A stretch of DNA of 64,000 nucleotides from Bacteroidales bacterium (lineage in GTDB: Bacteria; Bacteroidota; Bacteroidia; Bacteroidales; UBA3824). The DNA lies in contig JAFPZK010000016.1 of the NCBI GenBank assembly GCA_017417315.1, positions 31,494-95,493 on the forward strand, written 5' to 3'. Shown piece after piece: positions 33,012 through 63,103 of this stretch. The notes below the pieces were generated by a model. The model was not told where the DNA came from and searched no databases. It saw nothing but the letters and a program-made list of their open reading frames with translations. The stretch's first letter is position 1; every line of letters begins with the position of its first letter. A program made the position numbers and the translations under genes.

Positions 33012-33776
33012 ATGTCAGGACATAATAAATGGTCAACCATTAAGAGAAAAAAAGGTGCTTTGGACGCTAAACGTTCAGCAATGTTTTCACGTATTGCAAA
33101 GGAAATCGCTGTTGCGGTAAAAGAAGGCGGTCCCGATCCGGACGGTAACCCCAGACTTAGAACCGCTATTCAGAATGCGAAAGGTGTTTCGATGCCCAAA
33201 GACAACATCGAACGCGCTATCTCTAAATCTGCCGGCGATGGTGTTAACTATCAGGAAATTACATTTGAAGGATACGCTCCGGGCGGTGTTGCAGTTTTTA
33301 TTGAATGTCTTACCGACAACAACAACCGTACCGTGGCTTCGATTCGTTCGATTTTCAACAAGAGAAACGGCAACCTCGGAACTAACGGTTCTTTGAGTTT
33401 CTTGTTTGACAGAAAAGGCGTTTTCACGATTCCCGTTCCCGACGGCAAAGACGTTGATGAATTTCAGATGGAATTAATCGAAGCCGGTGCTGACGATTTT
33501 GACGACGTTGTAGAAGACGAAGAAGAGGGTACAAAATCATTGGTTGCATACACTTCGATGGAAGGTTTTGCAGCGTTCCAAAAACAACTCGACAGTTTAG
33601 GAATAGTTGCTACAAATGCTTCGTTGCAGCGTATACCTAACAATATGAAAGAACTTCCGACCTCTGACGGTGTTTCAGTTTTGAAAATGATTGAAGCATT
33701 TGAAGAAGATGACGACGTTCAGGCCGTATATCACAACCTCGAAGTTACCGAGGAAATGGAAGCACAAATGGAATAA
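33012..33776 (+). CDS. YebC/PmpR-family DNA-binding regulatory protein
   Basis: MSGHNKWSTIKRKKGALDAKRS N-terminus, diagnostic of the family. Confidence 0.9.
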   Translation: MSGHNKWSTIKRKKGALDAKRSAMFSRIAKEIAVAVKEGGPDPDGNPRLRTAIQNAKGVSMPKDNIERAISKSAGDGVNYQEITFEGYAPGGVAVFIECLTDNNNRTVASIRSIFNKRNGNLGTNGSLSFLFDRKGVFTIPVPDGKDVDEFQMELIEAGADDFDDVVEDEEEGTKSLVAYTSMEGFAAFQKQLDSLGIVATNASLQRIPNNMKELPTSDGVSVLKMIEAFEEDDDVQAVYHNLEVTEEMEAQME

Positions 33777-33816
33777 TGTTTTTTCTTCATGTAAAAAAAT
33801 CTCCGTATAATGTTTT

Positions 33817-34743: not shown

Positions 34744-34752
34744 AACTAAAAT

Positions 34753-34869
34753 TCAAAGGGCGATATGGTGAAACCTCGGACACGGAACGGTCTTATAACC
34801 GCTTCTACAACCCGAAAACGCTGCTAAAAGTATTAAAACCAATACCGCAAAAATTATTTTTCTCATCAT
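34753..34869 (-). CDS. 38-aa putative lipoprotein
   Basis: MMRKIIFAVLVLILLAAFSGC... is a signal plus lipobox. The longer 76-aa track ORF overlaps the upstream gene and is unlikely. Confidence 0.35.
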   Translation of the reverse strand: MMRKIIFAVLVLILLAAFSGCRSGYKTVPCPRFHHIAL

Positions 34870-34948
34870 GTATTCTTGTTTATTTAAAATTGTTATAAAA
34901 AAAGGCTGCCATAATGGGCAACCTTTTATAAAATTAATGTTTCTATGA

Positions 34949-39491: not shown

Positions 39492-40400
39492 ATGTCGAAA
39501 TATCTGAACCCGAAAGTTGATTTAACTTTCAAAAAAGTTTTCGGTGAGCATGCAAATTTGGTAAAAAGCCTTTTGAATGCTCTTTTGCCGTTGCCCGCCG
39601 GTATGACAATCGAAACTGTTGAGTATTTAACGGCAGAAAACGTTCCTGAAAATCCTGCGAAAAAATATTCAATCGTAGATGTAAGATGTACAGATAATTA
39701 CGGACGAGGCTTTATTGTTGAAATGCAGTCGTATTGGAACAAAGAATTTTTCTCGCGGACACTTTTTAACGCGGCTTCAATGTATTCGAAGCAGTTGGCA
39801 AAAGGCAATCCGTTTGAAAGATTAAAAGAGGTTTACGCCCTCGCTCTTGTCAATGATGAGGCGTTTAATTATGAAGGCGACAGCGATTATATGCAAGAGT
39901 TTTACATAATTAACAAAAAGCATCCGTCTGACATTCACAGAGATATATCGCTGATTTTTGTTGAACTAAAAAAATATAAACCTGCTGATAAAGGCAGCAA
40001 GGCGATAAAAGAACTTTGGCTGAAATTTTTAACGCAGATTGACGAGAATACGGTTGAAGTAGAAGATGCGATGTTAGAAAATCCTGAAATAAATGAGGCT
40101 CTGAATCTTGTAGAGCGTTCTGCTTACACGGATGCGGATATATATGTTTACGAGGATTATTTGCTTGAAGTTATGACACAGAGAAACTCTGTTGAAAATG
40201 CGCGAAATGAAGGCGAAGAAATCGGTTTTGAGAAAGGCGAAAAAGTCGGAATTGAAAAAGGACGTGCCGAAGGACGAGCCGAAGGCGAAAAACAAGCCAA
40301 ACTTGCTATTGCCCGTAACCTTAAATCTTTGGGTACAATGACGTTGAAACAAATTGCTGAGGCGACCCAACTTTCCGTAGCAGACTTAACCTTAATTTAA
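39492..40400 (+). CDS. Rpn-family recombination-promoting nuclease / PD-(D/E)xK putative transposase
   Basis: MSKYLNPKVDLTFKKVFGEH... and IVDVRC...FIVEMQ, the hallmark of the Rpn/transposase_31 family. Confidence 0.8.
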   Translation: MSKYLNPKVDLTFKKVFGEHANLVKSLLNALLPLPAGMTIETVEYLTAENVPENPAKKYSIVDVRCTDNYGRGFIVEMQSYWNKEFFSRTLFNAASMYSKQLAKGNPFERLKEVYALALVNDEAFNYEGDSDYMQEFYIINKKHPSDIHRDISLIFVELKKYKPADKGSKAIKELWLKFLTQIDENTVEVEDAMLENPEINEALNLVERSAYTDADIYVYEDYLLEVMTQRNSVENARNEGEEIGFEKGEKVGIEKGRAEGRAEGEKQAKLAIARNLKSLGTMTLKQIAEATQLSVADLTLI

Positions 40401-40520
40401 CCTAACACCTTTGTCTTAACTGTTAATTTTTGTTACTTTTGCACATTACAAACCCAATTAAACAACAAAATTTAACTAAAACTTAAAATAATAATGTTGC
40501 AAAATTCAATAAAAATATTA

Positions 40521-40545
40521 CAACGCAACGCAACGCAACGCAACG
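40521..40545. repeat. Pentanucleotide microsatellite (CAACG)x5
   Basis: Five perfect tandem units read directly. Confidence 0.95.
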
Positions 40546-40589
40546 GTATTTTATACCTCGTTTAGATATTTTTATATGATTGATATATA

Positions 40590-40643
40590 ATCCCTTGTGG
40601 ACGGAAAAATTTAATTCTGTCCGCAAGGGATTTTTGTTTTTTG
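40590..40643 (+). terminator. Rho-independent terminator
   Basis: 13-bp stem 40590-40602/40619-40631 (one G-U pair), 16-nt loop, then TTTTTGTTTTTT. Confidence 0.7.
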
Positions 40644-40674
40644 TATATATTTTAAGTTTAATATTTTTTTAATC

Positions 40675-40833
40675 ATGGAGAAAAACCAGAAGAAATCAGT
40701 CGTCATTGACGTAACGACAAAAAAGAAATACGTCAAACCCGATTTTGAAGTAATCGAGTTGAATATGGAAGCACCGCTTTTGATGCAGAGCGGCAAATTC
40801 GGTATACAAGAAGGACAACGTCATGAAATTTAA
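40675..40833 (+). CDS. 52-aa small ORF coupled to the downstream lipoprotein gene
   Basis: ATG ORF MEKNQKKSVVIDVTTKKKYVKPDFEVIELNMEAPLLMQSGKFGIQEGQRHEI, too short for the ORF track. Its stop lies 16 nt before the lipoprotein ATG. Confidence 0.3.
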   Translation: MEKNQKKSVVIDVTTKKKYVKPDFEVIELNMEAPLLMQSGKFGIQEGQRHEI

Positions 40834-40849
40834 AAAAGGAGGAATTAAA

Positions 40850-42283
40850 ATGAAAAAGACGTTTATTAAATTCTTGCCCTTTGCGGCAGCAGTTTTGCTT
40901 GCAACCTCTTGCGGCAAAGACGATAACAGCGACAACAACGTTGCTAATCCTAACAACGGAACAGAAGTAGTAACACCTGAAAACGGAGTTAAAACCGTGC
41001 CTTTTACCGTGAAAGTCGGTACTAACGGCAAAATCTCCAAAATTGCTTATTCAGGTGCTGACGGTACGGGTAACGTAACACCAACTTTTGAAGCAAGCGA
41101 AGTTGATAAACTTACGATGATAGTAACGGGAGAAGGTGTTAATACCACATTGACGTTGAAAGATGTTGACGGTACATTTAGCGGCGAAATTGCAGCGGGT
41201 TTAGCCACAGATTTTGATTTGACCGCCACAATTACTATTGACGGAGAAGCCGCTACTTCAAATACCAGTCTTAGTGATTTGATGAAAAATTGCGGACATA
41301 TTTATTCTCAGTCATTTAAGTATGGTGATGTTACATCAGGTAACAAAATTATGTTAGTTGACAACAAATCATATATTGAAGTATCTTGGATAAACAAAGG
41401 CGGACAAGAAGTAACTATCAGTGGAGAAAAATACACCTTAAACTCTGACGGTAAAATTTGGATTGCCGTTGCAGCAGGCTCGAACATAGTTTCAGATGAC
41501 CTTGGCGTTAGTTCAACTACTACCGTTGCCGGTGATATTTATACTATCAGTCGTACTTTTGTTGCAGTAACAAGTATCTCCATTTCCGGCGGTTTTGAAT
41601 CGAGCGAAAGCAATCCTTACGTATGGGGTTCAGAAACCACCGACAATAAGTCCTTGACTGCTACCGTTTTGCCTGAAAACGCTACCAACAAAAATGTTAC
41701 GTGGTCATCAGACGCACCGTCTCTTGTTACTGTTGATGAAAACGGCAAAATTACAATCATCGCTCCGAATACGGAAGCAAGTGCAAAGAAAGTTACCATT
41801 ACAGCCACTGCTGCTGACGGTAGCGGAAGTTTTGGTACTTATGACCTTTGGCTTGACAACTACGTTGACCTCGGTATTTCGGGCATTCACTTTGCAACAA
41901 CCAATAGTGCAGAAAGCAAATGGACTGACATTTCTGATAAAAATACTATTCCTTCAAAAGACGAGTGGACATCACTTTGGCAGAATTGCTATTGGGTGTG
42001 GAGTTCTGATTCTGAGGGTATGTACGTTTTTAAAGCGACTGGTTCAAATCAAAGTGCCCCCGCTAGATCATTTGACGATAATTATAAACTTGGCAATGGC
42101 GTTCCGTATATTTTCCTTCCGGTCACTCCGGACCGCTCCAACGGCATCTATTGGTCGAGTACGGAGGACGAGGGCGACGCGTACTGTTTGTACTTCCTCT
42201 CCAACGAAGTGAACACCGAGAACTACCTCGGCAACGTCAAGACTGGCACTTGGTCGGTTCGCACGGTTCGGCGCAGCAATTAA
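40850..42283 (+). CDS. Surface lipoprotein with a Big_2 Ig-like domain and a C-terminal FISUMP/DUF1566-like (C-type-lectin-fold) domain
   Basis: Lipobox LLATSC. Big_2 segment LTATVLPENATNKNVTWSSD..VTVDENGKITI. C-terminus ...YWSSTEDEGDAYCLYF....WSVRTVR. The likely start is ATG 40850 (MKKTFIKF). Confidence 0.7.
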   Translation: MKKTFIKFLPFAAAVLLATSCGKDDNSDNNVANPNNGTEVVTPENGVKTVPFTVKVGTNGKISKIAYSGADGTGNVTPTFEASEVDKLTMIVTGEGVNTTLTLKDVDGTFSGEIAAGLATDFDLTATITIDGEAATSNTSLSDLMKNCGHIYSQSFKYGDVTSGNKIMLVDNKSYIEVSWINKGGQEVTISGEKYTLNSDGKIWIAVAAGSNIVSDDLGVSSTTTVAGDIYTISRTFVAVTSISISGGFESSESNPYVWGSETTDNKSLTATVLPENATNKNVTWSSDAPSLVTVDENGKITIIAPNTEASAKKVTITATAADGSGSFGTYDLWLDNYVDLGISGIHFATTNSAESKWTDISDKNTIPSKDEWTSLWQNCYWVWSSDSEGMYVFKATGSNQSAPARSFDDNYKLGNGVPYIFLPVTPDRSNGIYWSSTEDEGDAYCLYFLSNEVNTENYLGNVKTGTWSVRTVRRSN

Positions 42284-42312
42284 CCATGTTTAACGGAACG
42301 AATTTTATAATT

Positions 42313-42352
42313 AAACGACTATCGGAATGCTTTTTTCGGTAGTCGTTTTTTT
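42313..42352 (+). terminator. Rho-independent terminator
   Basis: 12-bp stem AAACGACTATCG/CGGTAGTCGTTT (one G-U pair) followed by a T-run. Confidence 0.8.
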
Positions 42353-42423
42353 GTTGCAGAAAATAAAAAAAAGTTTTATTTTTACAGAAAAACTTTTAAT
42401 TTTTGCGAAAAATAAAAAGTGTA

Positions 42424-43299
42424 ATGATAGACGAAATTGAGAAAGGAAAAAGCGAAATCGTTATGTATCAGCCTGATGAAACAATAAAGTTAGAGGTTAG
42501 GCTTGATAATGAAACTGTTTGGTTGAATCGACAGCAAATGGCAGAATTGTTTAATCGCGATATTAAAACAATAGGTAAGCACATTAACAATGCTCTGCAT
42601 GAAGAGTTGTCTGAAATTTCAACTGTCGCAAAATTTGCGACAGTTCAATTGGAAGGAGAGAGAATGGTAAAACGTAATGTTGAGTATTATAATCTCGATA
42701 TGATTTTATCCGTAGGATATAGAGTAAAATCGGCTCAGGGTATTAAATTCAGGCAATGGTCGAATGCTGTTTTGAAACAATATTTATTAAAAGGTTATGT
42801 ATTGAATCAACGACTTTCCGATTTAGAAACTACTGTTACAGCACACAAAAGTGATATTGCCGATTTACAAACCAAAGTTGATTTTTTTATTCGCACCTCG
42901 TTGCCGCCTATTGAAGGTATTTTTTATGACGGACAAATTTTTGACGCATACGTACAGATTGTCGGATTAATTAAAGCGGCGAAAAAAAATATTGTACTTA
43001 TTGACAACTACGTTGATGAAACCGTTTTGACAATGCTCGGCAAAAGAACCGCCGGAGTGTCAGCAACAATTTATACAAAGCAAAATTCTAATAGTTTTCA
43101 ATTAGATGTCAATCGTTATAATGCTCAATATCCGCCTATTATTGTAAATATCTGCCATAATGCCCATGACCGTTTTTTGATTATAGATGATATTGTTTAT
43201 ATCTTCGGAGCAAGTCTAAAAGATGCTGGTAAAAAATTGTTCGCTTTTATAAAAATGCAGGAAACATCTCCAACTGATATTTTATCTTTGATAAGGTAA
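42424..43299 (+). CDS. RhuM-family virulence/phage-associated protein
   Basis: IVMYQPDETIKLEVRLDNETVWLNRQQMAELFNRDIKTIGKHINN is the characteristic RhuM N-terminus. The start is taken at ATG 42424. Confidence 0.75.
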   Translation: MIDEIEKGKSEIVMYQPDETIKLEVRLDNETVWLNRQQMAELFNRDIKTIGKHINNALHEELSEISTVAKFATVQLEGERMVKRNVEYYNLDMILSVGYRVKSAQGIKFRQWSNAVLKQYLLKGYVLNQRLSDLETTVTAHKSDIADLQTKVDFFIRTSLPPIEGIFYDGQIFDAYVQIVGLIKAAKKNIVLIDNYVDETVLTMLGKRTAGVSATIYTKQNSNSFQLDVNRYNAQYPPIIVNICHNAHDRFLIIDDIVYIFGASLKDAGKKLFAFIKMQETSPTDILSLIR

Positions 43300-47099: not shown

Positions 47100-48419
47100 A
47101 TGAAATTTTTTGACAGGGAAAAAGAAATAAAAACGTTGAAAGAAATCAACGAAAAATCTAAGTCAAACGCACAATTTACCGTTTTGACGGGTCGTAGGCG
47201 TATCGGTAAGACTTCGCTTGTTTTTAAGGCATACGACGGTCTTGATTTTCTGTACTTTTTCGTCTCCAAAAAGAGCGAAAGCGAACTTTGTAACGATTAC
47301 AAAAACGAGATTGAAAACAAACTGAAAATCTTAATTCCCGGCAAAATTACAAAGTTTTATGTTTTGTTTGAATATTTGATGCAACTTTCTTTAACGCGGC
47401 ATTTAATTATTTTTATTGACGAGTTTCAGGAATTTTTGCACGTTAATCCGTCAGTTTACAGCGATATGCAGCGGATTTGGGACGTTAACAAAAATTCAGC
47501 ACATCTTAACCTGATTGTTTGCGGCTCGGTTAATTCGCTTATTAACAGGATTTTCAGGGACTTAAAAGAACCGCTTTATGCACGTCAGACGGCATTTTTG
47601 AAAATTGAGGGTTTTGAAACAGGAGTTTTAAAAAACATTCTTTTGGAATATAACAGCGGTTACGATAACGAAGATTTGCTTGCTTTTTATGCTTTGACCG
47701 GCGGGGTCGCAAAATATGCGGAATTGTTGGTGGATAACAATGCTTTGACGAAGGACAAAATGTTGGATTATGTTTTGCAGAGCGAATCCGTTTTCTTGTC
47801 AGAAGGCAAAAATCTTTTGATTGAGGAGTTCGGAAAGGATTACGGCACGTATTTTACGATACTTTCGCATATTGCTTCGGGCGTTAATTCGCGACCGGCT
47901 ATTGAGACGGAAATCGCTAAGGAAATCGGCGGTTATATTTCGCGGCTTGAAAACGATTACGGTATAATCGCCAAAAAACAGCCGCTTTTTGAAAAATCAC
48001 CTAACAAAAATGTCCGTTATTTTATAAAGGATAATTTTTTGAATTTTTGGTTTCGCTTTATTTTTAAGTACAATTTTATGTTGGAAATCAATGCGCATGA
48101 CCGTCTTAAAGAAATTATTAGACGTGATTGGGAAGTTTATAGCGGTTTTGCGCTTGAAAAATATTTTACTGCGCGGCTTATTGAAGAACAACGTTTTACG
48201 CGAATCGGTCAATGGTGGGACAGAAAAGGCGAAAACGAGATTGATGTTATTGCCGCTGACGAACTTTCTAAAACGGCTGAATTTTACGAAGTTAAGCGTC
48301 AAAAAAGCCGTATCAATATTGAGGTTTTGAAAGACAAAGCCGGGGCTTTTAACAAAGCGACCGGCGGATTCAAAAAGTTTGACGAAAAGTTTTTTGCGTT
48401 AAGCCTTGAAGATATGTAA
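47100..48419 (+). CDS. ATPase of the 'archaeal ATPase'/DUF234 type
   Basis: FFDREKEI start, Walker A GRRRIGKTS, Walker B IIFIDEFQ, and a C-terminal DUF234-like region. Confidence 0.7.
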   Translation: MKFFDREKEIKTLKEINEKSKSNAQFTVLTGRRRIGKTSLVFKAYDGLDFLYFFVSKKSESELCNDYKNEIENKLKILIPGKITKFYVLFEYLMQLSLTRHLIIFIDEFQEFLHVNPSVYSDMQRIWDVNKNSAHLNLIVCGSVNSLINRIFRDLKEPLYARQTAFLKIEGFETGVLKNILLEYNSGYDNEDLLAFYALTGGVAKYAELLVDNNALTKDKMLDYVLQSESVFLSEGKNLLIEEFGKDYGTYFTILSHIASGVNSRPAIETEIAKEIGGYISRLENDYGIIAKKQPLFEKSPNKNVRYFIKDNFLNFWFRFIFKYNFMLEINAHDRLKEIIRRDWEVYSGFALEKYFTARLIEEQRFTRIGQWWDRKGENEIDVIAADELSKTAEFYEVKRQKSRINIEVLKDKAGAFNKATGGFKKFDEKFFALSLEDM

Positions 48420-50200: not shown

Positions 50201-50887
50201 ATGCTGAAAAAAATTCTTGACATATATAATGATTGTTTGGTCAGATTGTTTTTGGTAAAATGGTTCTGCGTTGATTATGAGCGTTTTATGAAACGAAACC
50301 ATAATCCTAAAAAACTTATTTTGCGCATGAGTTTTATCACTGTTTTTCTGACCTTTTTGGCGACGATTCCTACTAACGTTTTCATTTCCATTCCGTTAGC
50401 GGTGTTGGATTTGTTGCAGTTTCAAGTTTTTATAAATTTGGTTCAGCAGTGTATTCTTTATCATTATGGTCAGGAAGATTTAAGGGATTCAGACGGCAAA
50501 ATCGGTTTTAAAAACGGTGATTATTTGATGTGGCTTCAAGCCGAGGCGATGTTCGGATTAAGGGGCAGTGTTAATAATAAACTTAAAAGTGCAGGTAGTT
50601 TTATTGTCAGAAAATCAATCTCTTTGATTTTTACCAAATCGCCGTTCAGGGTTGTTTTGATGTCGCTTTTGAGGCAGTTTTTAAAGTGGTGCGGTGTTGT
50701 GGTAACGCATGAATTGCTGCTAAGTTCGCTTGATATTTTGGTTGTCGGGCTTTGTGCGCTGATTGCTGCGCTCGTTTCGCTTTGGCAGTTTTTGCCGATG
50801 TGCAAAAATTTTTACAAGAACATTCGCAATAACGGCGTTAGTTTTTATTCCACCTCCTTTTGTAATATTCATTCACCAAACTCCTGA
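50201..50887 (+). CDS. Membrane protein, possibly EcsC-like
   Basis: Several hydrophobic helices with weak resemblance to EcsC-family proteins. Its 3' end overlaps the RT 3' end by 50 nt. Confidence 0.35.
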   Translation: MLKKILDIYNDCLVRLFLVKWFCVDYERFMKRNHNPKKLILRMSFITVFLTFLATIPTNVFISIPLAVLDLLQFQVFINLVQQCILYHYGQEDLRDSDGKIGFKNGDYLMWLQAEAMFGLRGSVNNKLKSAGSFIVRKSISLIFTKSPFRVVLMSLLRQFLKWCGVVVTHELLLSSLDILVVGLCALIAALVSLWQFLPMCKNFYKNIRNNGVSFYSTSFCNIHSPNS

Positions 50888-52061
50888 AACCTAAACTTTT
50901 AAGTTCTGAGTACCGAACCTTAAAATTCTTTTTCGTGTGCCGTCCCGAAAAAAGGAAACGCATATATTGAATCAAATGTGTGTCAATTATTTTCAGACTT
51001 TTTGAAGTCGTCAAAAGCGGAAAATACCAGCGCGACCACGTAAAGCCGTCTTCGTTTTCGTCGTCGTAAAACTTTCTGTTGAAACAATCCGCTAAGTCAG
51101 CGGCAACGGTGTCAAAGTCTTCGTGTTTGCGCTTTTTACGCCTTAACAAGGCTTTGGCTTTGCGACGAATTTTGGCTTTTAATTTTTTTACTGACATTTC
51201 CGCTATGTCAATTTCCCCGTTTTGAAGCGAAAATCCTAAAAATTCCCATCTCTGCCCCGGAGAATAAGTTCTTAGTTTTTCTTGATTTATTGTCAGACCT
51301 TTTTCTATTATATAGTTGAAAATTAATGTTTTATATTCTTCCATTTCTTCTTTTGTGTTGCAGAGAACCAAAATGTCGTCAGAATATCTGAAATACGGTA
51401 CGGCTTTCTCGAAAAATATTTTGTCAAGACCGCGTAAATAAATGTTTGCAAAAAATGCCGAAACAGGTGCGCCCGCCATTGCGCCGGTATTTTCTTCTAT
51501 GACGGTGTATTTACCGTTGTCGCTTTTCAGACAGGCTTTGTTTTTGGTGACAAGTTGTTGAAGCAGAGCGCAAAGCGGGGCGTCGTCGGTGATAACCTCC
51601 GCAATTTCTTCGGCAAGTTTTTCCGAGGGTATTGAGTTGAAATAATCGTGAATGTCGATTTTCAACACGTATTGTTTGTTTCTGTTTTTTCGGCTGACGA
51701 TTTCTTTTATCGCCGTCTGAGCGCAAAATCCACGTCTGAAAGAATAACAATTTGGGTAAAGTTTATAATCGTATTTGTAAAGTATAAACGTCAAATGTTT
51801 TAAAATATAACTTTCGATTTTCGGGAAACGGTATATAATGCGTTTTTTGTCAGTGCCTTTTTTGTTGACGGCTGTTTTTAGCGGATAACGAAATTTATAT
51901 TCTCCCGAAATTATTTTTTCGGCGGTTTTGTGATATTCTTTATCGTCGATAAATTTTTTTAGTTTTTTTAATTTGCTTTTTTGTACGCTGGTAATTGAAG
52001 ATTTAAACGTATAAAACGCGTTCCAATTTTTTTTACTGTCAAGTTTTTCGATTAGGCTCAT
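50838..52061 (-). CDS. Stand-alone reverse transcriptase (unclassified; retron/DGR/UG-like palm, YSDD catalytic motif)
   Basis: Ordered RT motifs RIIYRFP, YVLKIDIHDYFNSI, GAMAGAPVSAFFANIYL, FRYSDDILVL, LTINQEK and WEFLGFSL, plus a basic thumb-like tail. The start is taken at ATG 52061 (MSLIEKLD); the track ORF starts at a TTG at 52088. Confidence 0.85.
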   Translation of the reverse strand: MSLIEKLDSKKNWNAFYTFKSSITSVQKSKLKKLKKFIDDKEYHKTAEKIISGEYKFRYPLKTAVNKKGTDKKRIIYRFPKIESYILKHLTFILYKYDYKLYPNCYSFRRGFCAQTAIKEIVSRKNRNKQYVLKIDIHDYFNSIPSEKLAEEIAEVITDDAPLCALLQQLVTKNKACLKSDNGKYTVIEENTGAMAGAPVSAFFANIYLRGLDKIFFEKAVPYFRYSDDILVLCNTKEEMEEYKTLIFNYIIEKGLTINQEKLRTYSPGQRWEFLGFSLQNGEIDIAEMSVKKLKAKIRRKAKALLRRKKRKHEDFDTVAADLADCFNRKFYDDENEDGFTWSRWYFPLLTTSKSLKIIDTHLIQYMRFLFSGRHTKKNFKVRYSELKSLGFRSLVNEYYKRRWNKN

Positions 52062-52257
52062 GGTGTTTGTCAACAAAGAAAAAAACAAAGAGAAAATTGC
52101 TTTGAAAGAAGCAATGCTTCTGATAAAGGGCTGAACGCGTAAATGGTTGCCTGCAAAACCAGTGTGCTATGGGAAATTATTTTTACGCGCTTTGCCCGCC
52201 GCAGGCGCAAATTTATCACAGAAATAAATTTTGCATTTCTCTTTGTTTTATAATGTT
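52062..52257 (-). ncRNA. Candidate structured non-coding RNA upstream of the RT (retron msr/msd-like or DRT-type ncRNA)
   Basis: A 14-nt perfect inverted repeat (52082-52095 / 52236-52249) encloses a 140-nt relatively GC-rich core with several internal helices. No promoter motif lies between it and the RT. Confidence 0.5.
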
Positions 52258-52713
52258 TTATAAGTATTTCGAAAGTCTTTCCCTAATGTACTTTATTTCG
52301 TTAGGAAAATGTTCGAGAAAATTTATCATCGGTATCGAATTTTTTTCTGCCACCTCTTTCGACCAACGGTAAAGCCTATAACGGCAAGTGTTGCGACCGA
52401 CTATCATGATGAAAAGTTTCGGTTTTCCGTTAGAATATATGCCGAAGGAATAATTCATAAATTTTCCCGTGCCGCCGAGTGTCAGGGGCGAAACATTTTC
52501 GCATACATCATATTGAGAGAAATTTTCTTTCAAAACTTCTTTCAATTTTTCACCGACATATCTTGTGTCCGAAAAGTCAAACGTTCTTTCCGGCTCGTAA
52601 TATCTTTCCGGTTGCGGTTTGCGTGAAGTTTTCATCGGGACTTCGTCGTCTAATCCGCCGAAAACTTTTGCTAATCCGTTGAATATATTATCAAGTGTAT
52701 TAATTAAGCCCAT
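52258..52713 (-). CDS. 152-aa hypothetical protein, first gene of the RT operon
   Basis: ORF from ATG 52713 (MGLINTLDNIF..). No family recognised. The C-terminal half (KPKLFIMIVGRN..IPMINFLE) has an alpha/beta pattern faintly reminiscent of endonuclease-like folds. Confidence 0.5.
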   Translation of the reverse strand: MGLINTLDNIFNGLAKVFGGLDDEVPMKTSRKPQPERYYEPERTFDFSDTRYVGEKLKEVLKENFSQYDVCENVSPLTLGGTGKFMNYSFGIYSNGKPKLFIMIVGRNTCRYRLYRWSKEVAEKNSIPMINFLEHFPNEIKYIRERLSKYL

Positions 52714-52765: not shown

Positions 52766-54922
52766 TTAAAATTCAGTATATTCGTCATCAAGTCTTATAT
52801 CCGAACCGCCGGTTCTTAACTGACTGAAATATTGAAGTTCTTTTTCAACGTTTTTTTCGAGTTCGGTTTTTTTGTCCGTTTCTACAAGTTTTTCTTCCGT
52901 TACAGTATTTTTCGTGTCCTCGTCTTTTGTTTCGAGTTTTGTATTGTCGGGATAAGAGGGCGATAACAGCGAAATTTTTTCTTCGTAATTAATGCCGCCG
53001 AGTTCTAAAATTTTGGTTTTTAATCTTAGAATTTCCGTTGTGTGCGAACTGATTTCTTCTATGAGTTTTTGAGTTTTGCTGTCTTCTGTAATTTGCGTTT
53101 TGAAAAAGTTTGTAACCGTATTCAAGTCAGCAATATTTTTTGTTAAGTTTTCGGAATATGCGGCTGTTTGTTTCGCAAAGTCAGAATTGTTGGCGGCTAT
53201 GCTGACAAGTTGCATAACTGACATACTTATCGAATATGTCATATTGAGTTGCTCTTTGCATATTTCGGAAATCGTGGAAACTTTTTCTGCAATTTTTTTG
53301 ATGTTCGGTAAAATTTGCTGTATGAGTTCCGCCGATTGACTTGTGGTTTTTAGACTCCATTTTGACGACTCGTTGATTTCTGTTGAAGCTTCAAGACAAT
53401 GTTCGGCGAGTTTTCGGATTTCTGAGGCAACCACGCCGAAGCCTTTTCCGTTTTCGCCAGCGCGTGCTGCTTCAACTGCCGCATTGATAGCCAAGAGGTC
53501 GGTTCTTTCGCTGATTTCGTCAATGATTTTAATTTTTTCCATGACGATTTGGATACTGTCCAAGGTGTTTTCGGAGGCTAATGTTATGTTGTTCATATCG
53601 CTTGCGACCTTGTCGGTAAAACTCTTGGTGTGCAGCGCGTTTTGAGTGTTTTGCTGAATCGAAACCGTCATTTTGTCAATCAAATCGTGAATCTGATTGC
53701 CGAACGAAACCTGTGATTTGGCTTCTTCCGAAACACTTTTAACGGATTTTTTCAGTGCGGAGTTTCCGTTAGCGATTGATTTTGAAATGGTGCGGATTTT
53801 TTTTACAGTTTCCGAAACCTTTTTTTGCATTTTTTCTGCCGAAAGTTTCAGGTCTCCGAACTCGTCGTTGCTCGTAATTGAGTTAGCGGCGTTGAGATAC
53901 ATTCTGCCTTCTGCAAAATCGTTGTTGAACTCTTTCATTTTATTGAGAGGTTTTTCAACAAAGGTTTTCGTAATTCTTTTTATTACAATGTATAACGCAA
54001 TTATTGATATAATCGTGATTACAATCATTATGACAAGCAGAAGGTTAGGCAAAAGGTCAAGCAAAACTTTCGGAGTGTTTAGACTCATGCCTATATCGGT
54101 GCCGGGCAAAACGTAAATCATACCTATCATTTCAAAACCGTTGGAATTGTATGTGCCTATGTAACATTCAGGTGCTGCTTCTTCTTTGCCGTTATCAAGA
54201 AATGAAATAACGTTTTTTGCTCCGGCTTTTTCCATTTCTTCCGCCGTTACGTTCTTAATTTTATTGTCATAATATACACGAAAATTATAGTCTAAGTTTC
54301 CCAAAACTGCATAACCGTACCCGTTTGCTTTGGTTTTTAAAAGAATGCTGTCAATCGGGGCTGACGAAAATCCTATCGCCAAAACAGCCGCTACGGAGTC
54401 TTTGTGCCGGTAAACGGGAAGCGAAACTTCAAACATGTCAGAGCCTAAATCCTGAGGCAATGTAACGTACCAGTTGTATTTTTCATAAATTATTTTGTGA
54501 AATGCCTTAGTTTGCTTGAAATTTTTGGATATTTCTTTTTCGTTGCTTTGGTATGTTGAGCCTTCAACGGGATTTGACAGCGAAATGTATGAATAGGGCA
54601 GAGGCGTGCCTTTAATCATTTGTTCGCAATTCTCCAAAAATGCTTTCGGGTCGGCAGTTTCGGAATATCCTTGCTGCAAAATGTTTAATTCGGCTTTGTA
54701 ACCCAAAAACGTATTTCTTAACGACTGACCTTGGGTTACTACCGACTGCTCATACATTTGTTTGGTGTTGTGAGTGTGCAGTTTAGAGACCGTTAGCAAA
54801 ACTATGACGTTTATGCCGACGATTATCAGAAATGTTACGGGTATCAAAACTGACGTATATTTTTTCAAAACCGTTTTTCCGCTTTTTTCCAAACGTTTTT
54901 TTATGTATTCCGAAGTATTCAT
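52766..54922 (-). CDS. Methyl-accepting chemotaxis protein paralog 5 (Cache-like sensor, HAMP, MCP signalling domain, long tail ending EYTEF)
   Basis: Two TM helices flank a roughly 270-aa periplasmic domain. Signalling tip [36 protein letters not shown]. Confidence 0.85.
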
Positions 54923-54967
54923 AACGATGTAATTTTTAGTTTTTTATCATTTATTACCTTTTTGATT

Positions 54968-56923
54968 TTATCTTTTTGCAATAAGGCGGTTTTTAAGTTT
55001 TGTAATTTCGCCTGAGTGCATTTCTATAAGGTCTATGATTTCTCTGTCTTCTTCGTTAGTTAAGTTGCTTTTCAGACGGAAAAATCCTATTGACTTGTTC
55101 AGGTCTTCGATTTTCCCGCTGATTCTGTCTGCAAAATGTGCCAAATCTTCCGCCGATTCGCTATTGTTTTGAGTAATGGTTACGAGGTGGTTAATGGCAT
55201 TTTTTATGACGAGTGTTTTTGACATTTGGTCTGTACACGTGTCCGAAATCTCTGAAATTTTTTCTGCCGCTTCTTGTATTTTCGGTGAAATTTTGTCAAT
55301 AAGTTCTACGGCATGACTTGTGATTTGAAGACTTTGTGCCGAAGATATATTGATTTCGGTTGAGGCTTTCAGACAACTTTCGGCGAGTTTGCGGATTTCG
55401 GTTGCAACTACCGAAAAACCTTTACCGTTTTCGCCGGCGCGGGCTGCCTCTACTGCCGCGTTTATTGCCAAAAGGTCTGTTCTTGTGGTGATTTCGTCAA
55501 TGATTTTTATCTTTTCGATAACGTTTTTAATACATATCAAAGTATTTTCTGATGCCTCGGTAACGGTTTGAATGTCAGAGGCTATGCCTTGCGAATTAAC
55601 GTGTGTGTTAACAGCCTTTTCGGTATTATCTCTGATAGAGTCGGCGATAGTTTCTACGGCGGCGGATATTTCTTGTACCGTTGCCGATTGAGAGCGGGCA
55701 TCTTCGGCAATCGCTCCGATTGAATTTTTCATAACGCTGCTGCTCTTGGAGATTTCTCCCGAATATTCCCTTATTTCTTTTACCGCATCGTGAACCTGTT
55801 TTTGCATTTGTTGAAGGTTGTTGCGCAAGACCATAATTTCGTCATCGGAGTTGATTTCGTTGATTGCCGAAGAATAAAGTCTGCCGAAAGTAAAATCTTT
55901 GGTAAATTTATTGACTTTGGCAAGAGGTCGTATAATTCTCTTTTTCGTTATTATGTATAGTACAAACAACAAAACTAAGATTAAAACTGCTGATACGATT
56001 ATAATAATGTATACCGTAGTGTACATATTTTTTTCGATTTCGCTTTTGGCGATGTTTAGTGTCAAAGCCCAGTTGAGACCTGCTACCATAGAGTAGAAAA
56101 TCAACATTTCTTCTTTTTGCGGGTTGTAATAATGATTAGTGCCTGTCATACGTTTTACCTCACCCGGTTTTGCGCAATGCAGACCGTCTATATGAAAACC
56201 TTTTTCCATTGCTTGTTCAATACCCGTAAATCCGTTAGAGACGAGGTATTGCATCGGTATGGTTAAGATTTTGTTGACATAATACATTCTTAAATTGTAT
56301 TCGGGGTCAACAAAACAGCAAAAACCTTTTTCGTTGATTCTCATGTCTTTTAATTCTGCGTCAATAACCGAGGCGGGAAAATTAGCGGTGAGTATGGCAC
56401 TGACGGTATCCGAACCCATATTTTTTACGGGAATTGAAATGCTGAAAACTTCGGTTTTGTAAACCTCTGATTTGTGTGCCATTTCAAAGGAGATTTGTTT
56501 TTTCTCCGAGATGATTTCTCTGAAAAATTTTCTTGTTTGGGCAGACTCTTTTTCCATGCCGGCTAAGTCCGTATAAGAAATTCCCGAAGGCAGCGTTACC
56601 TGCAAAAATGCCCATTTGTTATAATGAGAAGAAAGCATATTGCGGTATGCCGTGAAAATTTTTTCGGGGTTTTTTATATCATAACTTTTTGACAAAACAT
56701 TCAAATCGTCTGCATACCGATAAAAAATATTGCTGATATTATCGGCTTGTATGTTGATTGTCTGATGTATAGACGCACTTGTATTTTTTTTCGCCGCGCT
56801 GATGACACTATAAAACATCATGACGAAAATTAATACGACAAACACGATTACTAACGGAATAAGACCTTTGAGGTAATATGTCCAAATCGTTTTTTTACTT
56901 TTGTTGTTTGTTGTCTTTTCCAT
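54968..56923 (-). CDS. Methyl-accepting chemotaxis protein paralog 4
   Basis: Same architecture. Tip [36 protein letters not shown]. Confidence 0.85.
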
Positions 56924-56926
56924 ACG

Positions 56927-58891
56927 CTAATCTTTATTTGCAGTGAGTTTTGACCTTAACCGTATAATTTCCTGTGTGTGTTGTTCTATTTGAGAAACAA
57001 TTTCAAGTTCGTTGTCCGCTTCGGGGCGGAGTTTAAAGAAATCCAAATACAAGTTCAGTTCGTAGAGTTTTTTGTTGAGTTCCTTTGCAAAACTTTCCAT
57101 ATCGTCTGCCGAAACGGAGTTAGTTTCCGTAATGGTCATAAGTTGGTTCATTGAATCAGCGATTACTGAAACCTGTTGACGTAAAGTGTTACAAGCCTCA
57201 GAAATTTCGTCCACCTTTTTTTCGTTTGAGATGATTTCGGGTGCAATTTTACCGATCAGCGAAGTGGTCTGTTCGGTGATTTTGAGGGTCTGCGCCGAGG
57301 AAATGTCTATTTCCTGCGATGCTTTTTTGCATTGTTCTGAGAGTTTGCGGATTTCAGCGGCTACTACTGCAAAACCTTTACCGTTTTCGCCGGCTCTCGA
57401 AGCCTCTACTGCCGCATTGATGGCAAGCAAATCCGTTTTGTTGGTGATTTCGTTGATAATCAGCGATTTTGATATAACGTTTTGGATACATTCCAAAGCG
57501 TTTGACGATGTTCCAGTGATGACGGAAATGTCAGAGGAAATCCGTTTTGAAATTATGGAAGTGTCGGTTGCCGTTTTTGCATTGTTTGTTATGATGTCTT
57601 CCATGTTTGTTATGCTGACCGAAATTTCTTCTATCGTGGAGGCTTGTATTTGCGCTCCGCTCGAAACGTCAGCGATTGCCTTGTTGAGTGTTTTGTTTTC
57701 TTCGGCGATAGTTTCAGAATAGTCTTTGACGGAACTTACGGCATCAAAAATTCTGTCTTTCATAACTTGAAGTTTTGATTTTAAGTTATGAAGTTCTTTC
57801 GCCTTGTCAAAACCTTCGCCGGTCTGACTGTATATATGTCCTTCCGAAAAGTCGCTTATAAATCCGTCTATTGCAGAAAGAGGCTCCGTGATAAGCCTTT
57901 TTGTGAGTTTTTGGGTAACAAAATAAACTGTCAAAATAGTAATTATTGACAATATTGCCATCAACACTCCTAACCAATAAAGGTTGCCGTAAAAAATATG
58001 ATTGTAGACGCTCATTGAGAGAGCCATGTCTTTTATGCCGGGAATGTTGATGTAGACCATCTCCATTTTGTTCTTTTTGAACGAATCGAAAGTCGCCCTG
58101 CCGATGTATTTTTCTTTATCGTTGATGTGCGCCTGCATAGAGTCAAGCCCGTGTGAAAAAATATCATCTATGCCTGTGAATCCGACTTTCAATAATTGCG
58201 GTACGGTAAGAGTTTTTATTCCGAACTCAAAATAGCCCCTTACTCTGCCTTCTTTTTCCAAAATCGTGCAGTAACCCTCGTTGTTTACTTTGTAATGAGA
58301 GAGTTCTTCGTCGATTACCTCCGAAGGGAAATACGCTGTTAAAACGGCTTTGATGTTTCCGTCTTCGTCTCTGTCCGCTATCGAAACGCTGAATACTTCT
58401 TTGTTTTCTTCAAATTCATGCGGAAAAGCATTGCCGAAAGAAGTTTCTTCGTTTTCTTCAAATATCTGCCTAAAAAATTTTGAAGCCGTAAAATCAACCG
58501 TATCTTTTCCCGTTATGCTGTTGAAAGATTGTCCGTCTTGAAAAGTAAGACGGAAATAACTCCAAGGATTAGTGTGTCTTTCCAACAGATGATTTACCCT
58601 TTTCATGGTTTTGTCCATATTGGAATAGTCGAGAAGATATTTTATGATATTCAAATTGTCAACATACTGAGAGTATTTCAGCCCCGTGTTGACGGCGTGA
58701 ATATAGAGATTTTCGTTGACGGTGTCTACGAAATTGGTGTTGATTTTTTTGAAGACAATTATATACACCGTAAAATTAATTGTTAATACGATAAGTATAA
58801 TTGTCGGTATGAATATTCTTAGTAACTGTTCTCCTACGGTGTAATGTTCCGCAGGGTGAAGCAGTTTATTTATTTTGCTTTTTAAGTCCAT
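56927..58891 (-). CDS. Methyl-accepting chemotaxis protein paralog 3
   Basis: Same architecture. Tip [36 protein letters not shown]. Confidence 0.85.
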   Translation of the reverse strand: MDLKSKINKLLHPAEHYTVGEQLLRIFIPTIILIVLTINFTVYIIVFKKINTNFVDTVNENLYIHAVNTGLKYSQYVDNLNIIKYLLDYSNMDKTMKRVNHLLERHTNPWSYFRLTFQDGQSFNSITGKDTVDFTASKFFRQIFEENEETSFGNAFPHEFEENKEVFSVSIADRDEDGNIKAVLTAYFPSEVIDEELSHYKVNNEGYCTILEKEGRVRGYFEFGIKTLTVPQLLKVGFTGIDDIFSHGLDSMQAHINDKEKYIGRATFDSFKKNKMEMVYINIPGIKDMALSMSVYNHIFYGNLYWLGVLMAILSIITILTVYFVTQKLTKRLITEPLSAIDGFISDFSEGHIYSQTGEGFDKAKELHNLKSKLQVMKDRIFDAVSSVKDYSETIAEENKTLNKAIADVSSGAQIQASTIEEISVSITNMEDIITNNAKTATDTSIISKRISSDISVITGTSSNALECIQNVISKSLIINEITNKTDLLAINAAVEASRAGENGKGFAVVAAEIRKLSEQCKKASQEIDISSAQTLKITEQTTSLIGKIAPEIISNEKKVDEISEACNTLRQQVSVIADSMNQLMTITETNSVSADDMESFAKELNKKLYELNLYLDFFKLRPEADNELEIVSQIEQHTQEIIRLRSKLTANKD

Positions 58892-58906
58892 AATGATTAA
58901 TTTTTT

Positions 58907-61078
58907 TTAAAAATTTTCATAATTTTTGTCGCCCATATCAAGTGTTACGCCTTTATTAACAGGTTGTTCCGGCTCTGAAATTGCCGTTTGAGGCTGTTGG
59001 TTCGGTTTGTTTTGGTTTTCTTCCTCAAAAATGCCGAATCCGTCTTCGGTGTCTTTGTATAGCGAAACCTCTTTGGTATTGTTGAGCGTAGAGTCGATTA
59101 TGGAGTTTACCTCGTCTACTACGTCAGGGCTTTCTGCTATGTTTACGAGTTCTGTTTTCAGTTTCAAAATTTCTTGTGTATGACTTTCTATCATAGAAAT
59201 CATCTCATTGCGTTTGAGTTTTTTCAAAGTGTCCACTTGGAAAAAGTCGGTGCCGGCGTTCAAAACGGCGAGTTTGTCGCTGATTTGTTTTGAATAGTCA
59301 GCTATTTGATCGGCTGAGAGACGGTTGTTTGCCGTAATTTCCGCTAACTGCATTATCGCTTTGTGAACGGAAGCCGTTTTTGAAATTTGGTCAAGACAAA
59401 TCTCTGATATTTCGGCAATTCTGTCGGCGGTTTCTTTTATTTTCGGCGAAATATTGTCGATGAGTGCTACTGCATGACGTGTTATGTCAAGACTTTCAGC
59501 CGAGGAGTGATTGATGTCGGCAGAGGCTTGTTGACAACGCTCTGAGAGTTTGCGGATTTCGGAGGCTACTACGGCAAAACCTTTTCCGTTTTCGCCCGCC
59601 CTTGATGCTTCAACTGCGGCATTTATTGCCAAAAGATCTGTCCTTGTGGTTATTTCGTTTATGATTTTTAGTTTTATCAAAACGTTTTTCAAATATATCA
59701 GACTATTTTCAGATGATTTCGTAACGTTTTGAATATCTTTTGAAATGCTTTCAGAGGCTTCTCTTGTTGCCTGTGTTTTTTCGTTAGTTTTTTTTATGGA
59801 GTCGATAATTTGGTTTATCGAATTAGAAATATTATCAACGGTTTGTTGTTGAACTTTGGCATCGGCGGAGATATTGTTTACCGAGCGTGCCCATATCTTG
59901 CTGCCTTCGTTGAAACTGTCGGAATATTCCTTTATGTTTTTTACCATTTCAGCGAGCCGACTCTGCATGGATTGAAGACTGTTTTTCAAAACAGAAAATT
60001 CGTCCGTAGTGTTTTTGAAATTATGTTTGCCGTCTAATTTTAGAGGTACGGAGTAGAGTTTGCCTTTCGAGAAATCTTTTGCTATTTCGTTGATTTCGCC
60101 CAGCGGTGTCAACACGTATTTGTCGGTGATTAATTTTACGAATACCACAATTAATATCAAGACGATAACCGTAAGGATAATCATTATTTTCAGAATAAGG
60201 TTTGAGGAGGCATGCAAAACGGCAGAGGGGACGTTAATACTTACGCCCCAAGGTGTTCCGTCGATTTTAGCAAAATATGCCACCATTTTATCACCGTCTT
60301 TGTTATAATATTCGCCTTTTGCGTTTACGTTATAATTCCGCATGAAATTGTCGTAGAGTTTGTAGAAGTCTTTATTGCCGTTTTTTTCGGTTTCTTCGGC
60401 AGTGGTGTTGACATAGTCTTGGTCGAGGACTCTCATATTGAGGGTTTCGTCTACGATTGCGACGAAACCTTCGCCGTTGATTTTCATTTTTTGCAGCATT
60501 TTGTCCATTTTTGTGGTCGCAAATGTCGCTGACAATGACGCTATGACATTTCCGGCGGTGTCTTTTACCGGAATCGTAACGCTGAAAACATCGTCTTTAA
60601 TGATGTCAGTATGATGTGATATTCTGAAACTTATGTCTTTTTTGTCGATGAAAATTTCGCGGAAATATTTTCTTATTTTGGTGTTTACCGTATCCAAATA
60701 CGTGTAGTTTGTCCATGTTGTGCCGTCAGGGACGGTAATTCTGAGATAAGCCCATTCGTTGGAGTGTTTATAAAGCGTTTCGTTGGCTTTTTTGATAAAA
60801 CCCGATATGTCTCCGGGCGTGAAATACGATTTCAGAATATTTAAATCGTCGATGTATCTGTGCAGAAGATTCGACAAGTTATCGCTCTGAATGTTTACCG
60901 TCTGCAAAGCCATTTCTTGGGTTTTTGACTGTACGTCGTCGCTTATGGTGCGGTAAATCGTAAAATTCATGACGATAATCATAACAAGCACCGTCGGAAA
61001 AATATAATGAATGTATTTTTTCCAAATCGTGCTGTCTGAGGAATGAGTTATCTGTTTTATGATGTTTCTTAGGTTCAT
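58907..61078 (-). CDS. Methyl-accepting chemotaxis protein paralog 2 (long tail ending NYENF)
   Basis: Same architecture. Tip [36 protein letters not shown]. Confidence 0.85.
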
Positions 61079-61093
61079 AATTTTCTTTTTTTT

Positions 61094-63025
61094 TTACGCG
61101 TTAAACTGCCGGTCTTTTTCTTCCAACTCTTGACGGAGTTCCGTGATTTTGTCGGAATGTTCCTTTATTTGGGCTGAAAGTTCTTCTATTTTTTCTTTCT
61201 TTGTGTCTGTCAGTTTAAAAAACTGTATGTTTTTCAACAAATCGTTTGCAAATTTGCCGAAATTATCCGCTTTTGTAGCGAGGATTTCGGATAGTGCCGA
61301 ATTTTCGACCGAAATTTGCGTAAGTTGCTGGATTGCGTTGTTGATTTGTGAAGCACCGTTTTTTTGTTCGGCGCAGGCAACGGCTATTTCCGAAACTTTG
61401 TCGGCGTTGTCTTTGATTCTCGGAGTTATGTTTTCAATCAGCGAGGTTGACTCTTCCGTGATTGCAAGTGTTTCGTTTGAGGCTTCGTCGATTTGAGTGG
61501 AAGCCGTTTTGCATCTTTCGGCGAGTTTTTTGATTTCTGCCGCTACGGTCGAAAATCCTTTACCGTTTTCTCCCGCTCTTGAAGCCTCAACAGCCGCATT
61601 CACCGCTAATAAGTCGGTTTTTTTGGCGATGTCGTTGATGATTTTGATTTTTTCGATAATCATCTTTATACTTTCGAGACTCTTGTCGGAGGCTGAAAGT
61701 ACGGCGTTGATGTCATTTGCTATTGCCTCAGAATTTCTGCGGGTGTTTTCGGCATTGCTTGCCGTTTGTGTTATTGACGAAGAAATCTGCTCGATTGTCG
61801 CCGAAATTTCTTCTATTGCCGAAGACTGGTCGCCGGCGCGTTTGTAAATCGTATCGGCTGAGTCGTTGAGTTCATGACTGTTTTTGGTGATTTTGCCGGT
61901 GTTCTTCTTTATTTCCGTCATGGTATCAATCAGTTTCTTCGACATTTTTGTCATGTTTTGCGCAAATTCGCCTATTTCGTCGGAATAATAAGTATTTTGA
62001 TTATCAGCGTTGTACATAATGCCGTCAGAAAACTCTTTTACCGTCTGTTGAAGTTTATCCATCGGTTTTACGACCCTTTGTCGTATGTGAATGTAAAAGA
62101 ATATCATCACGCAAATCAAAATCAAGATGTTGACGATGATGAACAAATTTCTTAAATGCACTCTTACGCCGTCTATACTGCTGAACCTTTCGTATATGAT
62201 AAGATACCATCTTGTCCCTAAAATGCCGTGAAATGAGGTTTCAAATTTTTCGCCCGTAGAAGAGTTTATTATTTCTTGTAGACCTGACGGTACGCCGTTA
62301 TTGATTCTGCTTTTCAGAAGTGCCTGACCCTCTAAGATCCGGGAGTCGGCTATGTTGAAGTTTTGGGCATCGTAGTTAGGTGATTTTGCGATGACGGTAT
62401 TGAAGTCGTCCCGTTTTACGATAAGTGCGCCGCCGTCGGGATAGAGGTTAGAGTCTGAAATGATGTTGTCGATTTCATGAGCGTTTAAAGCAAGCGTGAT
62501 GTATCCTACGAGACTTTTTTTCTTGTAGTACGGCACGCTGACGTAAAACACTTCTTTTGTAATATCCGATATATCAACATAGCGGTCGCTGATATAATAT
62601 TGGTCTATGTATTTTAGCCCTTGTTCAAAGCGTTCTTGTCCTGAGATGTTTTCGGTATAATTGCCGATAGTGCTTGTGGTCGTACCGAAAATATCGGTAA
62701 ATTGTCCGTACCGAACAAGCACGTCGCTGCTGTCGGCGATGTGTGACAATACGGGCATAATGAAATTTTTATCTGCATCTTTTAGCGACAGTTCTTTGGA
62801 CAGTGCTTTCAACAGTCTTGCCGAAGATTGTATTTGTTGAGAGACGAGGTTTGCCTGCGCTTGTGCAATTTTGCTTTCGCTCCTAATGGTGTTGCCGAAA
62901 TTGAGCCGTTGGAAATTTTTCAGCAGAAAAAAATCCGCACCTATAACCAAGCATATCGTTAGCAACAATATTCTGACAACCAAAACCGAAACTAAGGATT
63001 TGCGTTTAAAAACTATGGTTTTCAT
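61094..63025 (-). CDS. Methyl-accepting chemotaxis protein paralog 1
   Basis: Same architecture. Tip [36 protein letters not shown]. Confidence 0.85.
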
Positions 63026-63103
63026 ACAAAATAGCGAATTTTTAGATTACAAAATTAAAATCATACAAATTTCAGGCAAAAACTGTCGCTTTTGAATGAA
63101 ATT

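Follow-up and report, generated by a model that had tools for sequence, protein, structure and literature searches.

Several groups of chemoreceptors, or methyl-accepting chemotaxis proteins (MCPs), offer a comparison for the locus described here. In Escherichia coli, Tar and Tsr carry a flexible C-terminal linker that ends in an aromatic pentapeptide and work beside Trg and Tap, which are without this tether. The pentapeptide (xZxxZ) is of the type that tethers CheR and CheB in Tar/Tsr, and receptors bearing it are reported to be abundant in Bacteroidetes (PMC7390727). A second group, represented by Bacillus subtilis McpB and McpC and by PctA, Tlp3, TlpA and Mlp37, senses through a double-Cache (dCache) domain. 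Receptors with a signalling hairpin of 34 heptads (34H) form a minor class usually assigned to F8 systems, and those with pentapeptides, such as PSPTO_0912 of Pseudomonas syringae, have been placed in the defined Che class F8 (PMC11253619). Here, an array of five MCP genes is described from a 64-kb stretch of contig JAFPZK010000016.1 (hereafter, the window), which belongs to a ruminant-gut metagenome-assembled genome (MAG) of an uncultured organism that NCBI names "Bacteroidales bacterium".

The array consists of five co-directional open reading frames (ORFs) on the minus strand at positions 52766-63025, named M1 to M5 in the order of transcription:

61094..63025, minus strand: M1, 643 amino acids (aa); transmembrane (TM) segment, dCache, TM segment, HAMP, MCP hairpin; two strict methylation sites; without pentapeptide
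58907..61078, minus strand: M2, 723 aa; architecture as M1; acidic tail of about 75 aa with the terminus NYENF
56927..58891, minus strand: M3, 654 aa; architecture as M1; near-consensus methylation site STIEEISVS; without pentapeptide
54968..56923, minus strand: M4, 651 aa; architecture as M1; one strict methylation site; the receptor that was modelled
52766..54922, minus strand: M5, 718 aa, the last gene; architecture by alignment to M2 and M4; no Pfam Cache match; tail of about 70 aa with the terminus EYTEF

The genes are separated by 15, 15, 3 and 45 nt, and M5 lies 52 nt from the next ORF, on the side of a reverse transcriptase (RT) gene; recomputed coordinates agree with the spacing first reported. 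All five proteins match Pfam MCPsignal (PF00015) with E values of ~1e-24 and 83.5-87.9 bits, against a cutoff of 34.6. The region is one operon-like unit of five MCP paralogs, as proposed in a preliminary description of this DNA, and the ORF spacing, the Pfam matches and the positions of promoter-like boxes and terminators agree on this point. The receptors are a host-associated addition to a known receptor class, and public databases already list them as MCPs; for example, M4 is identical in sequence to NCBI MBQ3655735.1 (locus tag II956_02660).

With the E. coli receptors the array shares an almost residue-identical hairpin tip, an EE/QE methylation motif in some members, and the combination of receptors that have a flexible C-terminal linker with a terminal aromatic pentapeptide and receptors that do not. 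M1-M5 differ from Tar and Tsr in that they appear to be 34H rather than 36H, have a dCache sensor instead of a four-helix bundle, carry Y in the pentapeptides of M2 and M5 where E. coli has W, are without consensus methylation sites in these two tether-bearing members, and are encoded as five genes in one operon. The dCache receptors named above have the same order of TM-dCache-TM-HAMP-MCP and provide the best full-length and sensor structural matches, but identity is 10-18% and those of B. subtilis belong to the 44H class. On informal inspection, the alignment shows no evident amino-acid-binding motif of the PctA type. PSPTO_0912 and other F8 34H receptors share the minor length class and the C-terminal pentapeptide, but they are single genes inside a che cluster, whereas M1-M5 form a multi-gene array away from che genes. 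The closest comparison within the phylum is a receptor from an environmental, not host-associated, Bacteroidota lineage (locus L010). It aligns with M4 without gaps at 32% identity across the whole signalling domain and has an acidic tail ending in EFEKF, but it is embedded between CheW and CheR in a che operon and has no helix after the signalling bundle.

Architecture of the five receptors

The order of TM segment, Cache-like periplasmic domain, TM segment, HAMP and MCP domain that had been read from the sequence is borne out by Pfam, by hydropathy and by a structural model of M4. Hydropathy places two membrane segments around a periplasmic region of ~250 aa. The dCache_1 profile (PF02743) matches four of the five proteins, M1 to M4, with E values of 1e-7 to 3e-11, which are under the Pfam cutoff; it is spanned fully in three of them and over about two thirds in M3, and the sensor of M5 is assigned to dCache via alignment with its paralogs only. 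The AlphaFold model of M4, built from a 41-sequence alignment, has a mean predicted local distance difference test (pLDDT) score of 82.8. From the N- to the C-terminus it consists of a long helix, two alpha/beta modules, the second TM segment with HAMP, a 134-residue helix, a five-residue turn, a 113-residue helix and a 30-residue helix. In Foldseek searches the whole chain matches B. subtilis McpB/McpC, and the sensor matches the solved dCache ligand-binding domains of KinD, Tlp3, TlpA, PctA and Mlp37 with template-modelling scores of 0.6-0.76. The modelled sensor of M4 has a double-Cache fold and lies at the following position:

56033..56785, minus strand: predicted periplasmic double-Cache sensor of M4, about residues 47-297 (Pfam, hydropathy and model)

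The paralogs are 31-39% identical overall and 40-54% identical in the signalling domain, in keeping with the earlier description of highly diverged sensors and conserved signalling domains. The hairpin tip DLLA(I/V)NAAVEA(A/S)RAGENGKGF is present in five of five receptors, so the motif given in the preliminary description stands, with the correction that M1 alone has V instead of I. In M4 the tip aligns residue for residue with Tsr 370-407, with conservative changes only. A degenerate tip, named beforehand as an observation that would refute the preliminary reading, was not found in any of the five:

61553..61585, minus strand: hairpin tip of M1, the putative CheA/CheW-contact region (motif and alignment to Tsr)
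59576..59608, minus strand: hairpin tip of M2 (motif)
57371..57403, minus strand: hairpin tip of M3 (motif)
55415..55447, minus strand: hairpin tip of M4 (alignment to Tsr)
53438..53470, minus strand: hairpin tip of M5 (motif)

At the DNA level, four copies carry the 11-mer CCGTTTTCGCC unchanged and M1 carries it with a single mismatch, and the best-conserved 300 nt are 62-78% identical between copies; both observations accord with the earlier remarks that short blocks are shared and that even the conserved DNA differs widely.

Compared with the 36H Tsr, M4 has seven residues fewer in each arm of the hairpin and is therefore placed in the 34H class, with seventeen heptads per arm. Furthermore, the tip and an FFK motif at the end of the bundle could both be located in 90 homologs, and in 85 of these the tip glutamate lies 116 residues from the FFK motif. 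M1-M5 thus appear to be 34H receptors, a class assigned here by length. The bundle is followed by an additional helix of ~25-30 aa, which starts 8-12 residues past the bundle end, is modelled in M4 with a pLDDT of ~85 and is kept in most of ~100 rumen and gut Bacteroidales homologs:

54974..55063, minus strand: predicted extra helix of M4 after the signalling bundle, residues 621-650; the motif I..IE.HT.EI..LK..L is found in M1-M5

Features of adaptation are distributed unevenly over the array. The strict methylation consensus [ASTG][ASTG]xx[EQ][EQ]xx[ASTG][ASTG] is matched twice in M1 and once in M4, and M3 is one residue off. Following acidic tails of ~70-75 residues, the other two members end in pentapeptides:

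58910..58924, minus strand: M2 C-terminal pentapeptide NYENF (xZxxF type), putative CheR/CheB tether
52769..52783, minus strand: M5 C-terminal pentapeptide EYTEF, putative CheR/CheB tether

An xZxxZ terminus, with aromatic residues at positions 2 and 5 and almost always F or Y as the final residue, is found in 43 of the 120 best homologs, mostly long forms, against ~1% expected by chance, and in about a dozen more the motif lies 1-3 residues from the end. The pentapeptide is retained in the homologs despite diverging linkers. That tethers and methylation sites are found in different members suggests that adaptational assistance takes place in mixed receptor clusters, a hypothesis that would also account for the predicted co-transcription of M1-M5.

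Age, conservation and selection

The genome belongs to the Bacteroidota, as suspected from the sequence: besides its NCBI name, its nearest GTDB species representative is the sheep-rumen Bacteroidales MAG RGIG6747. In RGIG6747 the gene order is as in the window (ribBA, five MCPs, a small ORF and the RT), and the five receptors are 78-83% identical to M1-M5, which they match one to one and in the same order. A second lineage (locus L011) carries an array that is 40-52% identical and also matches one to one in the same order. Because these arrays are orthologous in this way, the five-gene unit predates the lineages in which it is found. Synonymous differences among the paralogs of the window are saturated (proportion of synonymous differences, pS, 0.58-0.79). 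The low identity of the paralogs, the saturated synonymous sites and the orthologous arrays all agree with the earlier view that the array is old and not a recent amplification.

The alternative that the array is an artefact of mis-assembly or mis-binning, or the product of recent amplification, was also considered, and no point in its favour was found. The same array has been assembled independently in several ruminant-gut samples with the same Bacteroidales neighbours, on contigs of up to 216 kb, the synteny is repeated in a separate species (RGIG6747), and the GC content of the array is in the range of the rest of the window (0.34-0.45). Together with the divergence of the paralogs, these observations refute this alternative, whose probability is judged to be negligible.

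Between the window and RGIG6747, the ratio of nonsynonymous to synonymous substitution rates (dN/dS) ranges from 0.05 to 0.07 for the signalling domains and from 0.09 to 0.19 for the sensors. Such very low values argue that M1-M5 are working genes and, judged from these sequence comparisons, the array is real, old and functional. The M5 ortholog of RGIG6747 (locus L001, 13093-15293) is split into ORFs of 268 and 455 aa, which may reflect a frameshift pseudogene or an assembly error.

In the L011 lineage an OstA-like gene and ribF flank the array, and no RT adjoins it. There the array, together with nitroreductase and OstA_2 genes, separates YebC from ribF; in the window these two are direct neighbours. 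When window positions 33012-36736 are compared with L011 461-17118, YebC is 95% and a tetratricopeptide repeat (TPR) protein 76% identical, far more than the 40-52% of the MCP orthologs, so either the receptors evolve much faster than the genes around them or whole arrays were duplicated and differentially lost.

Further receptor arrays were seen in related rumen Bacteroidales (L008 5987-12070, L013 10001-15990, L014, L015, L018 10001-14185 and L103 8084-12112). Additional array types in the rumen include a conserved three-gene array after the ferrochelatase gene (hemH) and two different two-gene arrays. The three-gene array precedes the gene of a 137-aa secreted protein built of WMTExxxLLNEETL repeats.

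Che genes and the signalling pathway

Chemotaxis machinery was initially held to be uncommon in Bacteroidota. This view is not supported, given that CheA occurs in several groups of the phylum and that complete che operons include a receptor of the same length class as M1-M5; many chemoreceptors with a pentapeptide have also been noted in Bacteroidetes before (PMC7390727). With a Bacteroidota CheA as the query, >7,000 of 8,000 scored matches had E <= 1e-10, and among the best 120 every taxon-labelled match was from Bacteroidota, with Cyclobacteriaceae, Tenuifilaceae/Tenuifilum (including a 3.9 Mb genome), Salinivirgaceae, Marinilabiliales, Mucilaginibacter and Bacteroidales among the names. 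Four Bacteroidota che operons were inspected: L010 (6721-16889; GCA_016845175.1), L016, L017 and L106. The L010 operon contains CheY, a split CheA, CheW, the MCP, CheR, a HATPase, CheD and CheB, and its contig also carries type IX secretion tail domains. In these operons CheA appears as two ORFs, one for the Hpt part and one for the kinase part, which overlap by ~40-50 nt in two loci. The presence of CheA and of che operons with same-length receptors in the phylum means that having no che genes nearby is different from having no che genes.

The preliminary description stated that no che gene is visible within the 64 kb, and two kinds of search support it. Phmmer searches with Bacteroidota CheY, CheA, CheW, CheR, CheD and CheB against all window ORFs of at least 50 aa gave no match, and Pfam and NCBIfam scans of essentially all window ORFs of at least 150 aa found housekeeping, transport and defence-like genes only; no flagellar, pilus, gliding or che gene was found among the scanned ORFs. 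Unlike the receptor of the Bacteroidota che operon (STAS-CheY-CheA-CheW-MCP-CheR-HATPase-CheD-CheB), M1-M5 have no che gene beside them in the 64 kb. The genome probably measures several Mb, so 64 kb without che genes says little. Outside the window, extension past its left end gave only contigs of 2-3 kb, and a genome-collection scan gave two contigs, 8 and 21 kb long, from related MAGs; neither led to a che gene. Around eight further MCP homologs, the 10-kb neighbourhoods held only more arrays. CheA searches that started from a Bacteroidota operon or a Bacteroidales MAG brought up environmental lineages and Tenuifilum and, among the matches listed, no MAG with a rumen array. Among cluster representatives, which were searched exhaustively, 150 CheA sequences were returned, from which rumen candidates could not be singled out by amino-acid composition. 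A metagenome scan returned, among the matches listed, unrelated and mostly high-GC receptors, and a literature search found nothing on chemotaxis in rumen Bacteroidales.

We consider it likely that M1-M5 are canonical chemoreceptors whose signal goes to Che proteins from another part of the genome. Che partners are expected because an intact tip, the length class, methylation motifs, the tether and a very low dN/dS have all been kept. The metagenomic loci of the signalling domain's nearest environmental relatives, most of which hold CheA or CheW (counts below), speak for the same reading. Each receptor would bind a different periplasmic ligand via its own diverged double-Cache sensor, and the signal would travel through HAMP and down the short 34-heptad four-helix hairpin to the conserved tip, which would couple to CheA as the kinase and CheW as the adaptor, with genes at other loci. 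Adaptation may proceed by methylation in M1, M4 and probably M3, which carry consensus sites, while the flexible acidic tails and aromatic pentapeptides of M2 and M5 would tether CheR/CheB. Co-expression from one promoter could let the five receptors form mixed clusters in which the tether-bearing members serve their neighbours, by analogy with Tar/Tsr and Trg/Tap in E. coli. The output could be some form of movement, or gene regulation via STAS, RsbW-like kinase and PP2C genes such as those found with the che operons of other Bacteroidota. We infer rather than observe the existence of CheA/CheW and CheR/CheB, the mixed clusters and the adaptational assistance. The anomaly implied at the outset, of receptors without a pathway in a phylum without chemotaxis, is not established and is probably wrong.

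Several results weigh against this explanation. The consensus scan finds no methylation site in M2 or M5, and neither the environmental 34H relatives nor the L010 receptor inside its che operon have the extra conserved C-terminal helix. Moreover, none of six array locus types in rumen Bacteroidales (the five-gene array at two sites, the three-gene array after hemH, the two different two-gene arrays and the window itself) has CheA, CheW, CheR or CheB within 10 kb on either side. Among the matches listed, the top CheA hits do not show the many-contig, many-sample pattern of the rumen MCPs, and none of the CheA accessions returned from NCBI lies near the accessions of twelve array-bearing MAGs.

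These results could instead be read as signs of orphan receptors, in which CheA and CheW were lost or never present and another partner took their place. Components of gliding or of type IX secretion, or a different kinase, are examples of such a partner, and contact might then be made through the C-terminal helix that is specific to this family. The helix is confined to the rumen and gut receptor family, no CheA is linked to any array-bearing MAG among the matches listed, and the zero of six array locus types with che genes within 10 kb stands against 19 of 28 long metagenomic loci of the signalling domain's nearest environmental relatives, among the matches listed, with CheA or CheW within the same distance. 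However, a tip, a length class, methylation motifs and CheR/CheB-type pentapeptides under strong purifying selection are hard to explain without canonical partners. In most bacteria, MCP genes lie scattered away from the che genes. The che-gene search covered a few percent of any genome, and the CheA matches considered were the best 120 of thousands, so the missing che genes near rumen arrays are weak negative evidence. Orphan receptors are therefore judged unlikely. A related idea, that a widespread ruminant-gut Bacteroidales lineage expanded one receptor type into stand-alone five-, three- and two-gene operons that work without CheA/CheW, through the C-terminal helix, with a non-canonical partner such as the gliding/type IX machinery, is considered quite improbable.

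The output of a canonical pathway could also be something other than taxis. The receptors would then feed a partner-switching control of transcription, a reading that differs from the explanation preferred here, a Che pathway encoded elsewhere, in the output only, which the preferred explanation leaves open. An extra HATPase gene lies between CheR and CheD in all four che operons inspected, a STAS domain lies beside the operon CheY in three of the four (in L010 by sequence match only), and PAS/GAF-SpoIIE genes follow the operon in two, L016 and L017. The STAS, RsbW-like kinase and SpoIIE-type genes in these operons imply that their output may be regulatory and not motility. In addition, the L010 operon receptor is of the same length class and has the same kind of pentapeptide, and no flagellar, pilus or gliding gene was seen at any locus. 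None of the four operons comes from the rumen lineage, though, and eight or more diverse periplasmic dCache sensors fit taxis better, as pathways with alternative functions usually have one or two receptors. A non-motility output is thus a possibility that we regard with some doubt.

Genomic surroundings and biological meaning

The putative limits of the transcription unit and the adjoining features are as follows:

63050..63057, minus strand: Bacteroidetes-type -7 box TAATTTTG in the gap between ribBA and M1, a motif match and predicted promoter
52258-52713, minus strand: 151-aa ORF after M5; no family match (Pfam, PADLOC); 81% conserved and syntenic in RGIG6747
52093-52210, minus strand: RT-5 RNA (Rfam RF03026), 69 bits against a threshold of 45.7, E 4.5e-12
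50838-52088, minus strand: reverse transcriptase, PADLOC class UG26, E 3e-145

On the minus strand TAnnTTTG occurs six times in 13.5 kb, which is about the chance expectation. Three of the six matches lie in the intergenic sequence, which amounts to a few hundred bases: upstream of M1, upstream of the 151-aa ORF (52731) and where the RNA ahead of the RT starts (52215). The other three fall within MCP coding sequence. The box upstream of M1 is the only intergenic one in or directly upstream of the array; no such box lies in the gaps inside it, and no terminator-like site was found between the M1-M5 genes. A sigma-70 promoter scan was set aside as uninformative for Bacteroidota. The positions of boxes and terminators, which are motif matches, point to a single transcript of all five genes and an RT unit under a promoter of its own. 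The 169 nt that precede the RT gene hold the RT-5 RNA and fold with z = -3.1. The adjacency of array and RT looks incidental, because promoter-like boxes and an RNA belong to the RT unit itself and because the ~50% identical orthologous array lies elsewhere without an RT. The 151-aa ORF was considered as a CheW-like adaptor and rejected; it has no Pfam or PADLOC match and is unrelated to the small ORF that follows the three-gene arrays.

A convergent 228-aa ORF on the plus strand (50201-50887) shares 50 nt with the 3' end of the RT gene. In PADLOC it matches PDC-S30, a candidate defence family (E 4e-13), and RGIG6747 has it in a syntenic position with 84% conservation. Other mobile or defence-like genes are scattered over the window (39492-43299, 6336-7688 and 47100-48419), namely a PDDEXK_2 (PD-(D/E)XK transposase-like) gene, a RhuM-family gene, one gene for an Ig-like surface protein and two for AAA ATPases (DUF4143 and DUF234 types).

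Gut and rumen Bacteroidales are usually regarded as non-motile and chemotaxis-free. Multi-gene receptor arrays under strong selection in an abundant rumen lineage imply active sensing of several chemical cues in a major group of fibre degraders. If the Che pathway is present in these bacteria, the questions become which behaviour is controlled without flagella and which rumen metabolites are detected; if it is absent, the receptors would have a new signalling partner.

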